Source: Candidatus Methylomirabilota bacterium (GTDB lineage: Bacteria; Methylomirabilota; Methylomirabilia; Rokubacteriales; DATEAO01). Taken from it: 29,956 nt of DNA. Positions 27,137-29,956 of this stretch are shown here, piece by piece. The notes below the pieces were generated by a model. The model did not search any database, had not been told where the DNA came from, and saw only the letters and a program-made list of their open reading frames with translations. Positions within the stretch are counted from its first letter, which is position 1. The number at the start of each line of letters is the position of its first letter. The stretch covers positions 1 through 29,956 of the forward strand of contig DATEAO010000218.1 in the NCBI GenBank assembly GCA_035288345.1. The letters run 5' to 3'. The position numbers were made by a program, and so were the translations under genes.

Positions 27137-27478
27137 TCACCTTCTTGTGGTGCGGGGGCGTCCTTGGCGCCAAGATCCGGGGACCGTCACCATCCAGAGA
27201 ATCGCCACCAAGGCGAGTAAGAGGAGCTTCACAGTGGCCTGCCAGCTGAACTGGGTTTTGAGCTGAATCGGCGAGGTCGACTTCTGGAACTCCTCGCGGG
27301 CCTGATCTTTTGGCTCGTAGTGCGTGGAGCTGTAGCCCTGAAGCTTCGCCACGAAATCCGAGACCCACGGGACGGCGATGTAGGAAACGACCATCACCGT
27401 GAGGATCACATAGAGGTAAAACCACCCCCCACGATCCAACCAGTGCTTGAACCGGCGGTGGTGGCGGCGACTCCTCAT
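27137..27478 (-). CDS. Hypothetical membrane protein (2 TM)
   Basis: 113 aa with two hydrophobic segments; ATGA overlap with the asd stop. Confidence 0.7.
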   Translation of the reverse strand: MRSRRHHRRFKHWLDRGGWFYLYVILTVMVVSYIAVPWVSDFVAKLQGYSSTHYEPKDQAREEFQKSTSPIQLKTQFSWQATVKLLLLALVAILWMVTVPGSWRQGRPRTTRR

Positions 27479-28491
27479 GGGCGCGGTTCTTTCTGGATGA
27501 GCTGCTCAGCGATCTGGATCGCGTTGGTCGCAGCCCCTTTCCGAAGCTGGTCCCCGACGATCCAGAAGAGAAGGCCATGGTCGAGCGAGAGGTCTTCACG
27601 GATCCGTCCCACAAAGCAATCATCCTGTCCCTCGGCGAGGATCGGCATCGGATAGCGGTTCGCTCGAGGGTCGTCCCAGAGTCGGAGACCGGGGAAACCC
27701 TGGAAGAGCTCACGGGCCTTCGACGCGCTGACCTTTCGCTCGGTCTCGACGCGAACAGCAACGGAATGCGCGGTGAAGACCGGAACCCGAACCGTGGTCG
27801 GCGCAACCTGAATGGTCGGATCACCAAGGATCTTTCTCGTTTCATTCACGAGCTTCATCTCTTCTTTGGTGTACCCATTGTCAAGAAACGCGTCGATGTG
27901 AGGAAGGAGGTTGAAGGCGATCCGGTGAGGGAACACTCGGACTTCCATAGGCTCGCCTTTGGACCACGCCAACGTCTGACGGCGCAGCTCCTCAACCGCT
28001 TGGGCCCCGGCCCCTGAGACCGCCTGGTAGCTCGTCGCGACCACGCGCAGGATCCTGGCGTAGTTCTGGATCGGCTTCAGTCCCATGACCATCACGATCG
28101 TGGTGCAGTTCGGGTTCGCGATGATGCCACGATGCTGTCTGAGGTCGTGTGGGTTGATCTCCGGAACGACGAGCGGAACCTGTGGGTCCATGCGAAACGC
28201 GCTCGAGTTGTCGATGACGATCGCGCCGGCTCTCGCCGCCTTGGGAGCCCATTCTAGGCTTCGCGCCGCTCCTGCCGAGAAGAACGCGATCTCGACGCCT
28301 TGAAAGGTCTCTTCGCTGAGCGGCTCCACCCGGAGCGACTCGCCGGAAAAGGCGACCGATTTGCCGATCGAGCGCTCCGAAGCCACGCAGCGAAGCGCCT
28401 TGATCGGGAACTTCCGCTCTTCCAACAGCTTGAGCAAGGTCTGCCCCACCGCTCCGGTAGCGCCGACGATGGCGACGCGATAGTAGCTCAT
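27475..28491 (-). CDS. asd: Aspartate-semialdehyde dehydrogenase
   Basis: VGATGAVG, IDNSSAFR, PLVVPEIN, IANPNCTT, YQAVSGAG, RVPVFTAHS, DQLRKGAA. Confidence 0.97.
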   Translation of the reverse strand: MSYYRVAIVGATGAVGQTLLKLLEERKFPIKALRCVASERSIGKSVAFSGESLRVEPLSEETFQGVEIAFFSAGAARSLEWAPKAARAGAIVIDNSSAFRMDPQVPLVVPEINPHDLRQHRGIIANPNCTTIVMVMGLKPIQNYARILRVVATSYQAVSGAGAQAVEELRRQTLAWSKGEPMEVRVFPHRIAFNLLPHIDAFLDNGYTKEEMKLVNETRKILGDPTIQVAPTTVRVPVFTAHSVAVRVETERKVSASKARELFQGFPGLRLWDDPRANRYPMPILAEGQDDCFVGRIREDLSLDHGLLFWIVGDQLRKGAATNAIQIAEQLIQKEPRP

Positions 28492-28538
28492 TGCTGGAAG
28501 AGCACGTCAAGCTCTCTTACGATCAGGTCCCCCATCTG
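28486..28538 (-). repeat. Duplicate of the leuB 3' end (53 bp, copy of 28748-28800)
   Basis: 52/53 identical (A28519 vs G28781); encodes QMGDLIVRELDVLFQQ* and carries the ATGA overlap with asd. Confidence 0.95.
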
Positions 28539-28747
28539 CCTTCCTCGGAGGGGGGCACGCCCCCCTTCCGACCCTCCCCCAGGGTTGCGCGGGGCTCGCG
28601 TTCGCTCGCCCGTGCCATTGAGTTGCTCGCCTCGCCTCCGGCCGCAGCTCGCCCAACCACGCCCGCGCTCGAACGCGACAACGCATCCCAACGAGCCGAT
28701 GCCAAAACAACGCTGGAACTCATTACGTCAACTCAGATACGTAATAG
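28539..28747. mobile_element. 209-bp structured REP-containing insert between the two leuB-end copies
   Basis: TCGGAGGGGGGCACGCCCCCCTTCCGA (28545-28571), ATTACGT/ACGTAAT hairpin, AGTTGCTCGCCT module; no credible gene. Confidence 0.7.
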
Positions 28748-28749
28748 GC

Positions 28750-29838
28750 TCATTGCTGGAAGAGCACGTCAAGCTCTCTTGCGATCAGGTCCCCCATCTG
28801 ACTGGTTCCCACGAGGGTGGTGCCTTCCCGATAGAGATCCTTTGTGCGGTATCCTTTCTCCAACACTCTGACGACCGCGTGCTCCAGCCGCTCCGCCGCA
28901 TCCGGCATGCGAAAAGAATGGCGGAGCATCATCGCGCCGGAAAGAATCGCCGCGATCGGATTCGCGATCCCCTCTCCAGCAATGTCAGGCGCGGTGCCAT
29001 GCACCGGTTCATACAATGCGGTCGCACCTCCCAGGCTTGCCGACGGGAGCATCCCCATGGAGCCCGTCAGGACCGCTGCCTCATCGGAGAGAATGTCCCC
29101 GAACGTGTTTTCGGTGACGATCACGTCGAAGTCCCGGGGACGCGTGACCAGCTGCATGGCCGCGTTGTCCACGAGCAGATGCTGAAGCGCGACGTCCGGA
29201 TACCCCTTCCACACTTCCGTGATCACTTGACGCCAGAGCTGAGAGGTCACGAGCACGTTCTGCTTGTCGACAGAGGTCAGCCGTTTCTGCCGCTGACGCG
29301 CCACTTGAAAGGCCACGTGCGCCACGCGCTCGATCTCCTCAGTAGTGTAGCTCATCGTGTCCACCGCGCGCATCCCGGTTGCGGTCGGCTCGATTTTTTT
29401 TGGCTCGCCAAAATAGAGCCCCCCAGTCAGTTCTCTCACTACCAGGATGTCGGTGCCCTCGACCACGGATCGCTTGAGCGGCGAGGCGTCCACCAGCATG
29501 GGGAAACATTTGGCGGGGCGGAGGTTCGCATAGACATCAAGCGCCTTCCGAAGGCCCAAAAGGCCGCGCTCCGGTCGTTTGTCATTCGGCGCGTTGTCCC
29601 ACTTCGGGCCGCCCACGGCGCCGAAGAGCACGGCGTGGCTCTTCTGGCACAGCTTGAGCGTGGAATCCGGGAGTGGACTGCCGGTTCCGTCGATGGCAGC
29701 GCCCCCGACCAAGCCGTTCTCAAATTCAAACCCCACGCCCGCTTTCTTTGCAACCACCTTGAGCACCTTGACGGCCTCGCTGATGACCTCAGGGCCGATC
29801 CCGTCACCACCCAGCACCGCGATCTTATAGGTTGCCAT
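28750..29838 (-). CDS. leuB: 3-isopropylmalate dehydrogenase
   Basis: GDGIGPEV, GAVGGPKWD, ANLRP, RELTGGLYFG, DKQNVL, N.FGDILSDEA, EPVHGTAPDIAG. Confidence 0.97.
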   Translation of the reverse strand: MATYKIAVLGGDGIGPEVISEAVKVLKVVAKKAGVGFEFENGLVGGAAIDGTGSPLPDSTLKLCQKSHAVLFGAVGGPKWDNAPNDKRPERGLLGLRKALDVYANLRPAKCFPMLVDASPLKRSVVEGTDILVVRELTGGLYFGEPKKIEPTATGMRAVDTMSYTTEEIERVAHVAFQVARQRQKRLTSVDKQNVLVTSQLWRQVITEVWKGYPDVALQHLLVDNAAMQLVTRPRDFDVIVTENTFGDILSDEAAVLTGSMGMLPSASLGGATALYEPVHGTAPDIAGEGIANPIAAILSGAMMLRHSFRMPDAAERLEHAVVRVLEKGYRTKDLYREGTTLVGTSQMGDLIARELDVLFQQ

Positions 29839-29841
29839 CGG

Positions 29842-29907
29842 TCAGGACACCTTCAGGCCTTTCCTTTTGGCGACGTGTTTCGTCAGGCCGCCGGCTGCCA
29901 TGATCAA
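29842..29907 (-). pseudogene. leuD: 3' stub of an isopropylmalate isomerase small subunit (LeuD-like C-terminus) directly after a REP
   Basis: LIMAAGGLTKHVAKRKGLKVS* resembles the I..AGGL..Y end of LeuD/homoaconitase small subunits and sits upstream of leuB; the in-frame upstream sequence is REP DNA, not LeuD. Confidence 0.55.
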
Positions 29908-29949
29908 CCTCGGAGGGGGGCATGCCCCCCTTCCGAACTTCCCCCCCAG
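29908..29949. repeat. REP-like palindrome (family copy), possibly truncated by the window edge
   Basis: CCTCGGAGGGGGGCATGCCCCCCTTCCGA is 28/29 identical to 28543-28571, with a similar TCCCCC(CC)AG tail. Confidence 0.85.
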
Positions 29950-29956
29950 AAAGCTT

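Follow-up and report, generated by a model that had tools for sequence, protein, structure and literature searches.

How can a piece of DNA come to lie between two genes that overlap at their stop and start codons, without damaging either of them? This question is raised by a 29,956-nt stretch of DNA, hereafter the window, which is the entire contig DATEAO010000218.1 (C218) of a Candidatus Methylomirabilota bacterium of the order Rokubacteriales. The contig belongs to a soil metagenome bin, G000, of 549 contigs and 3.45 Mb with 61% G+C, estimated at 89% completeness and 3.9% contamination. In the window, leuB (3-isopropylmalate dehydrogenase; 29838..28750, minus strand) precedes asd (aspartate-semialdehyde dehydrogenase; 28491..27475, minus strand), both of them essential genes of biosynthesis, and an insert of 209 bp, carrying a repeat that resembles the repetitive extragenic palindromic (REP) sequences, lies between two copies of the leuB end. 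Genes overlapped by ATGA are thought to be hard to part without damage, and the leuB/asd junction shows a natural route by which this happens, with two copies of the upstream gene's end retained.

A polymorphic insert between two copies of the leuB end

The first-pass annotation of this DNA, made from the sequence alone, had described a 53-bp duplication of the leuB end around a 209-bp REP-containing insert, and this description is borne out. In a repeat search of the window, positions 28486-28538 and 28748-28800 were found to be equal at 52 of 53 bases (54 of 56 when the pair is extended to 28486-28541 and 28748-28803), the sole mismatch within the arms being 28519 (A) against 28781 (G). By genome-wide blastn the arm sequence has two copies only, so that a match due to chance is ruled out. 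Either arm contains the final 47 nt of leuB and then ATGAGC, and the ATGA stop/start overlap is present in both. The leuB-proximal arm (28748..28800, minus strand) is the real 3' end of leuB, with its TGA stop at 28752-28750, followed by ATGAGC. The asd-proximal arm (28486..28538, minus strand), which we call the stub, is a copy of the leuB end that stands ahead of the real asd (ATG at 28491-28489) and holds the native upstream region of asd. The roles first assigned to the two copies, the distal one keeping the overlap with asd and the proximal one completing leuB, are thus confirmed. Both neighbours are also intact, as had been proposed: leuB and asd are full open reading frames (ORFs), and the expected Pfam domains, Iso_dh for leuB and Semialdhyde_dh plus Semialdhyde_dhC for asd, were found on the identical genes of contig L050, which comes from an independent assembly. 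The A at 28519 of the stub gives Val (GTA), a residue present at that position in 6 of the 11 relatives and the most frequent one among them, all relatives compared here being of the same order and of other families; the G at 28781 gives Ala (GCA), as in the empty allele described below.

Read from the stub, the insert begins with the 5' part of the REP-like element (28539..28593, plus strand), whose hairpin-1 end adjoins the stub. This part comprises hairpin 1 (28545-28571), a CCTCCCCC box and the opening half of the hairpin 2 stem (GCGCGGG, 28587-28593). At the place of the hairpin 2 loop, which is 3 nt long in the canonical element, a second repeat family, module 2, is nested (about 28594..28661, plus strand; about 20 genome copies). 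The closing half of the hairpin 2 stem (CCCGCGC) and then the usual terminus GCGCTCGAACG follow up to 28675 (28662..28675, plus strand), the 3' terminus, TCGAACG here, being recognised by comparison with the canonical terminus GCCCGCGCTCGAAC. The remainder, U1 (about 28676..28747), is a unique segment of lower G+C, with no further blastn copy in the genome, and is absent where the junction is empty; a 22-mer of U1 gave zero exact matches in public metagenome and genome contig collections. Taken as one unit, the 209-bp insert occurs once in the genome; the 68-nt core of the repeat has 158 matches.

The insert is non-coding, as stated at first, the ORF list holding no credible ORF within it. The statement that it is highly structured has to be divided: the repeat hairpins are real and show covariation, but the RNA fold of the whole 341-nt stretch is no better than that of shuffled sequences (z = -0.13). 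In the repeat search no inverted pair was found between 28539-28560 and 28725-28747, the two ends, CCTTCCTCGG and GATACGTAATAG, being unrelated. A scan of 27400-29956 against Rfam returned only a sub-threshold match to whalefall-1 (18 bits for a cut-off of 37), and a promoter and terminator scan of 28300-29956 gave no promoter-like site and three terminator-like matches, all of them outside the insert. A tandem duplication followed by replacement was considered and set aside, the insert carrying no trace of the asd 5' end beyond a doubtful 9-nt similarity.

Is this arrangement real, or is it an artefact of assembly or a mixture of strains? The 549-contig metagenome bin with its 3.9% contamination leaves room for such an error, as does the fact that an assembly at k=31 cannot phase the 33-nt exact part of the arms. 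However, L050, from an independent MEGAHIT k141 assembly, is 100% identical to the window over 5482 nt, filled junction included, and the two assemblies whose k exceeds the length of the arms do not disagree at a single base. In run X1, which is probably the source sample of G000, contigs built at k=31 span 28543-28673 and 28645-28777, the U1-to-arm junction included, with 0 mismatches and at depth 7, the same as the flanks (6.5-8.4); these contigs end 30 nt into each arm because of the 33-nt exact repeat. Moreover, the arms differ at one base, and the empty form is found only in samples without U1. A mis-assembly or strain mixture is in our opinion scarcely credible.

In runs X2, X3 and X5, a single contig links 28485 straight to 28748, omitting exactly 262 nt, with 0 mismatches over up to 286 + 627 nt (913 nt). 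U1 is essentially absent from these three samples, the depth over 28672-28730 being 9.7 in X1, 0.69 in X2, 0.92 in X3 and 0 in X5. The empty allele carries G (Ala), as the real leuB arm does. The same strain occurs with the filled junction and with the exact empty leuB-ATGA-asd junction, and this is a discrete polymorphism. The empty junction had been named as something to look for in relatives; it is present in the same strain, and the ancestral junction is indeed compact, since relatives of other families have compact leuB/asd junctions (acATGAGCTAC, with the same overlap, in relative G002), from which it follows that the filled state is derived. Within the strain, the pattern could reflect either a recent gain of the insert or its precise loss when the arms recombined, and the polymorphism is possibly reversible. 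As both alleles exist in one strain, gain, loss and effects on expression are directly measurable. The Asd of the window is 64-76% identical to that of the relatives; when it was used to search metagenome contigs for close strains, the best match was 69% identical and no further alleles were found.

We also observed that LeuB and LeuD of G000 are closest to those of relative G005 (73% and 88%), and Asd to that of G002 (76%). From the sequences, this split could hint at different histories on either side of the junction, or at differences in rate.

Recurrence of the junction at hairpin 1

The REP-like repeat is about 68-75 nt long and forms two hairpins. An alignment of 70 copies was made, the 68-nt core gave 158 nhmmer matches in G000, and for the part at 28541-28593 blastn gave more than 150 related copies. 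Hairpin 1 is a G/C hairpin of 12-13 bp, and hairpin 2 shows covariation, with a GC/CG swap at one pair (41 versus 21 copies). The copies lie between convergent genes in 28 cases, between co-directional genes in 48 and between divergent genes in 9; the repeat is found mostly behind gene ends and rarely between divergent genes. No short target duplication was detected: in 78 full-length copies, the flanking 7-10-mers match no more often than shuffled pairs.

In many cases the repeat is part of a larger composite, about 190 nt long, whose flanks are constant (GCAGGCTGCTGAAAAAGGCCCATCTGCGGCGAAGGCTTTC on one side, CGGAGAATGCGGTCGCTCGTCGTTGCAACGTACATCT on the other); it is present at about 25 loci of G000 (for example C437 3806-3913 and C316 1813-1919). 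The left flank of this composite and the end of the leuB stub have an 8-mer, CCCATCTG, in common; taken as a clue to the junction, this 8-nt match led to no consistent junction model. The 15-nt repeats that flank copies on C495 and C526 belong to another repeat module.

A second event is found in the same window, just upstream of leuB. Here a stub of leuD (29854..29905, minus strand) matches the real leuD 3' end, at C135 71-122, in 47 of 52 positions. It lies upstream of the leuB ATG, at a distance of 15 nt, and has retained the ancestral tail, KVS and a stop. The hairpin-1 end of a canonical REP-like copy (29908..29956, plus strand) adjoins this stub; the copy is cut by the end of the contig, and L050 adds 23 nt to it, through hairpin 2. 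On C135, which carries leuC and leuD and is presumably the adjacent contig, the order is the terminus motif TCGAAACG, about 62 unique nt and the real leuD end, the real leuD having a new tail, LQGAKSG and a stop, that is read from the unique insert DNA. The leuD/leuB event is present in X2 and X3 as well, so it is older or fixed.

A sensitive flank comparison, which covered 103 repeat copies, revealed the same arrangement on C47 (35-nt arms, gene 5' end), C439 (68-nt arms with 75% identity, gene 3' end), C134 (33-nt arms, gene 5' end) and C492 (36-nt arms, ribosome-binding site and gene 5' end). With leuB/asd and leuD/leuB, this makes six repeat-junction events, and the expectation that other copies of the repeat would stand beside duplicated gene ends is thus supported. 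In all six, the repeat has its hairpin-1 end 2-5 nt away from one arm, and a unique segment of 8-72 nt, different each time, separates the other end of the repeat from the second arm; a mirror search for the opposite geometry, with the arm at the other end of the repeat, gave 0 events. These segments, including U1 and those of leuD/leuB, C439, C134 and C492, are unique and have no source copy in the genome.

Arms at the repeat junction are found in just 6 of the 158 copies, the remainder having no long arms, and none were found at 30 repeat loci (L020-L049) of four relatives, G002-G005, where the sole arm-like match was in fact two adjacent tRNA-Ser genes. Within G000, the flank matches C77/C89, C61/C128, C209/C320 and C100/C140 were not arms but could be traced to genes that are paralogous or vary between strains.

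The one-sided geometry could mean that the repeat is the end of an active non-autonomous unit. An enzyme would cut at the foot of hairpin 1 and insert the repeat with its 3' flank, and target nicks staggered by 30-100 nt, once filled in, would leave a long duplication of variable length, in the manner of IS1549 and IS1634. The six events, whose arms lie 2-5 nt away from hairpin 1 and never at the opposite end, agree with such a unit; so do near-identical arms around a polymorphic insert, as would be seen after a recent insertion, and the single mismatch could be an error of fill-in. In addition, copies of the repeat from four families of the order share 81-93% identity, against about 70% for leuB and asd DNA; this unusual conservation may point to spread or to a conserved partner protein. 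Five of these genomes yielded neither a REP-associated tyrosine transposase (RAYT) nor an Ssn-type nuclease. However, the far-side segments differ, are unique each time and have no source copy in the genome, arms occur at only 6 of the 158 copies while the others show no target duplication, and there are no terminal inverted repeats. The fact that the units between the arms are not identical, and that the U segments have no source copy, argues both against a defined mobile unit and against one-ended transduction within the genome. We regard the active non-autonomous unit as somewhat unlikely, although, if true, it would be a new kind of mobile element. A related proposal, that the foot of hairpin 1 is the specific cut-and-join site of a strand-specific enzyme, and that a one-ended unit moves the repeat with neighbouring DNA, appears to us unlikely; it would imply a one-ended unit that inserts at gene ends with long variable duplications and spares tightly coupled operon genes.

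The search for a linked recombinase, RAYT or reverse transcriptase had been suggested as a check. None was found. The 30-kb contig C218 carries no recombinase and no reverse transcriptase, the 11 Phage_integrase (tyrosine recombinase) matches of G000 all lying on other contigs. Three Y1_Tnp matches are present on C114 and C125, one with an internal stop and two partial, on contigs without the repeat, and no Y1 (RAYT) transposase was found in five repeat-rich relatives (up to 98% complete). The sole GIY-YIG match of G000 lies in a 606-aa open frame, which is UvrC-sized; GIY-YIG matches in four relatives, two of them in frames of 668 and 675 aa, look UvrC-like. Apart from frames at contig ends, G000 and the five relatives yielded no small GIY-YIG gene, although one may have been missed, as the assemblies break at repeats. 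Thus neither a usable RAYT nor a small GIY-YIG nuclease speaks for the mobile unit in these genomes.

Known mobile repeats resemble the insert in part. The REP/REPIN families are likewise high-copy extragenic palindromic repeats behind gene ends with covarying hairpins, but in G000 the repeat does not border any RAYT gene, and in the five repeat-rich relatives no such gene was detected; moreover, REP insertion is not known for target duplications of 50 nt. Unlike derivatives of insertion sequences (IS) or miniature inverted-repeat transposable elements, the insert has neither terminal inverted repeats nor a fixed short target duplication, and at the repeat loci the arms are 33-68 nt long, with a unique segment that parts one arm from the repeat. 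IS1549 and IS1634 are autonomous insertion sequences with a transposase and terminal inverted repeats, whose target duplications vary from tens to hundreds of bases. The long direct repeats of variable length are common to them and to our locus, but the insert has no transposase and no terminal inverted repeats.

Arms around other inserts and differences between arms

Direct-repeat arms of 27-106 nt also border inserts that have no repeat at the junction. The longest, 106 nt, surround a vapBC pair (PIN and RHH domains; L018, C502 14586-15832) behind the end of an enoyl-CoA hydratase gene. A hicBA-like pair has 50-nt arms at the start of uvrA, a CopG-type pair has 48-nt arms, a two-ORF insert without Pfam match has 27-nt arms just upstream of ureA, in its leader, and an intergenic case has 38-nt arms. 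The further two-gene insert loci are L132 (C262 216-733), L133 (C476 4240-4971) and L134 (C285 13940-14487). The targets of the four two-gene inserts are thus an enoyl-CoA hydratase gene end, the uvrA start, an intergenic site and the ureA leader. The toxin-antitoxin cassette inserts measure 420-1035 nt, and these cassettes seem to enter G000 by the same insertion-duplication route.

We also noted 95-nt arms, 98% identical, around a hairpin-rich insert of 108 nt (L135, C2 1-298). These arms contain a tRNA 3'-end-like sequence (GGTTCGAATCC, reverse complement), where ARAGORN calls no tRNA.

For the eight events with coding arms, 24 of the 37 differing codons are synonymous. This count was compared with a simulation in which the duplicate arises in situ, the stub decays neutrally and the real copy accepts synonymous changes only; the simulated synonymous count was 12.0 +/- 2.9, and 24 was reached in 0 of 5,000 runs. 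On C134, 5 of 5 differences are synonymous and the N-terminus is different; on C439, 10 of 15 are synonymous at 75% identity; on C502, there are two synonymous codon differences, plus TAG versus TAA. Judged from these sequences, the differences between arms look like those between two diverged functional alleles.

Both observations bear on the mobile unit considered above, since arms equally long surround cassettes without a junctional repeat and the bias between arms is synonymous. The first-pass annotation had inferred a small non-autonomous element that makes a long target duplication, and this inference is not supported: the arms never simply bracket the repeat, the U segments differ and have no source copy, arms occur at 6 of 158 copies only, equal arms surround inserts without the repeat, and 24 of 37 differing codons are synonymous. 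We therefore consider an origin by recombination more probable than a transposon-like one that duplicates a long target, because U is unique, most of the 158 copies are armless, the toxin-antitoxin cassettes are equally armed and the arms show a synonymous bias.

The same data can be set against template switching in situ, in which a replication fork would have left the leuB end, copied about 209 nt from another template that contains the repeat and returned 53 nt upstream by a microhomology-mediated step. The variable arm lengths, a similarity of only 1-6 nt at the junctions and the near-identity of the arms at leuB/asd are in line with such a switch, and GC-rich hairpins are plausible stall sites. 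However, a template for U1 exists nowhere else in the genome and U1 is absent from the empty-allele samples, the older events show the synonymous bias, and an insert of 420-1035 nt, the size of the toxin-antitoxin cassettes, would be long for a template switch. For these reasons we find template switching distinctly unlikely.

The duplicated gene ends had also been likened to those left by integrases, for example by e14 in icd. The leuB/asd insert could then be a remnant or miniature of an island mobilised by an integrase at the leuB 3' end, the arms being attL and attR and the gene-end copy of the island replacing that of the host. Integrative islands (e14 in icd, and cis-mobilisable islands) do duplicate a gene 3' end as direct repeats and leave the gene intact; gene-end repeats with allelic synonymous differences fit att sites, toxin-antitoxin cassettes are typical survivors of decayed islands, and 11 tyrosine recombinase genes are present elsewhere in G000. 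Yet there is no integrase on the 30-kb contig to back the analogy, and the insert contains no gene, let alone island genes. With at least 10 different targets, among them gene 5' ends and intergenic sites, an equal number of site-specific systems would have to be assumed; the position of the junction at hairpin 1 is left unexplained, and the identical flanks of the filled and empty alleles are hard to reconcile with a decayed island. A remnant of this kind is very unlikely in our view.

Origin of the insert and fate of the stubs

The reading that we favour, with moderate confidence, is that the leuB/asd insert is the scar of a recombination, part homologous and part illegitimate, with DNA of a relative, joined at the foot of a hairpin. 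The incoming DNA would have brought the end of leuB, its own downstream flank of roughly 70 nt (U1) and a REP-like repeat or, at other loci, a cassette. It would have paired homologously in or near the leuB end, and an illegitimate joint would have linked its other end, at the foot of hairpin 1, to the resident chromosome at a point 47 nt ahead of the stop of the resident leuB. The event may have been one-sided, homologous and illegitimate, or a single crossover of a trimmed and recircularised fragment. In either form, the resident leuB end would be left as a 53-nt stub before asd, and the incoming copy would complete leuB. Selection would keep only the products with a complete leuB and with the native upstream region of asd, and the stub would survive because it holds the translation start region of asd. 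Recombination arm by arm would then remove the insert precisely, which would explain why the strain is seen with and without it. U1 looks foreign to the recipient, being absent from the three empty-allele samples and without a second copy in the genome. If this recombination took place, the gene-end stubs beside repeats and toxin-antitoxin cassettes would be scars of gene flow between relatives, and the repeat hairpins would mark the ends of incoming DNA.

Insertion-duplication and homology-facilitated illegitimate recombination (HFIR) offer a precedent: foreign DNA is placed beside a homologous segment, with a direct duplication of variable length, no enzyme of an element is needed, and the repeats can recombine with each other so that the insert is lost again (PMC3240628). 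In E. coli, most of the events expected to be illegitimate were single crossovers of partly degraded, recircularised DNA, with locus duplications of 109-950 bp, and HFIR events usually deleted recipient DNA, their illegitimate joints showing 3-10 nt of microhomology (PMC3240628). Our case differs in that the duplications made in the laboratory were 109-950 bp long (PMC3240628), and the natural arms here are of 27-106 nt; in addition, the illegitimate joint lies at the foot of a repeat hairpin in six cases. At the stub-to-repeat joint, at most CT is common to both sides, after one mismatch; at the U1-to-arm joint, ATAG is common with an offset of 2 nt; and at the C262 joint, GGATAA is common. 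Capture by end joining was considered and dropped for want of support, no Ku gene having been found in the 89% complete genome.

Hairpin 1 might define the end of the incoming DNA, because it halts an exonuclease or because it is itself a site of cutting, since the joint lies at its foot in 6 of 6 repeat-junction events. In Neisseria, the Ssn/NTS system cuts incoming single-stranded DNA a few bases upstream of a hairpin on one strand, which changes the recombination ends (PMC11893778). The NTS/SRM repeats are likewise dispersed, oriented hairpin repeats and provide a precedent for a hairpin that defines the end of recombining DNA (PMC11893778). However, the published motif, HGTCWY...RNCYNB, needs a GTC tag (PMC11893778), and by eye none is present upstream of hairpin 1 on either strand; nor was a gene for a small GIY-YIG nuclease found in G000 or the five relatives.

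Several results weigh against a recombination with a relative's DNA. Searches of the contig collections with the U1 22-mer and with Asd revealed no donor context for U1, and no ComEC or Ku gene was found in G000, which is 89% complete. The strict preference for hairpin 1 (6 to 0) could equally mark the end of an element defined by an enzyme, and 0 of the 30 repeat loci of the four relatives have arms. The leuB and asd flanks are identical in the filled and empty alleles, so that the donor must have been very closely related, unless the empty alleles have reverted from the filled state. As for the synonymous bias, it is not significant without C439 and C134 (P = 0.12), and the allelic signal comes mainly from C439, C134 and C502. 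The leuB/asd arms themselves differ at one site only, by a non-synonymous change, and the non-synonymous differences at leuD/leuB look like decay of the stub, which would fit a duplication in situ equally well.

Beyond holding the start region of asd, the leuB stub contains a mini-ORF (28535..28488, minus strand) of 15 codons, MGDLIVRELDVLFQQ followed by a stop, whose TGA overlaps the asd ATG. In the mRNA sense the stub reads GAGGAAGGCAG-ATG, 14 further codons and this TGA, and a purine-rich GAGGAAGG lies at the junction, 3-10 nt ahead of the ATG of the mini-ORF. The leuD stub reads GAGGTTGATC-ATG in the mRNA sense, and its stop is 3 nt before the leuB ATG. In both stubs the arm begins exactly one codon before an in-frame ATG; by a rough estimate, the chance of this occurring in both is about 0.02. 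This pattern suggests a selection for translated stubs, which would keep the coupling of translation between the neighbouring genes.

A comparable arrangement is known for MIRU (mycobacterial interspersed repetitive units), which are repeats between operon genes whose small ORF ends 4 nt into the downstream start and preserves expression (PMC12548453). Short repeats within an operon and a small ORF overlapping the downstream start are common to both cases (PMC12548453). In MIRU, however, the coupling ORF is inside the repeat itself, which inserts at start codons (PMC12548453), whereas here it is in the duplicated stub of the upstream gene; furthermore, the repeat studied here is non-coding and antisense to the operon, and no tandem arrays or sequence similarity were seen.

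Downstream of asd, between asd and truA, a 113-aa ORF without Pfam match (27137-27478, minus strand) has an ATG that overlaps the asd stop, and the gene calls of two other assemblies include this ORF.

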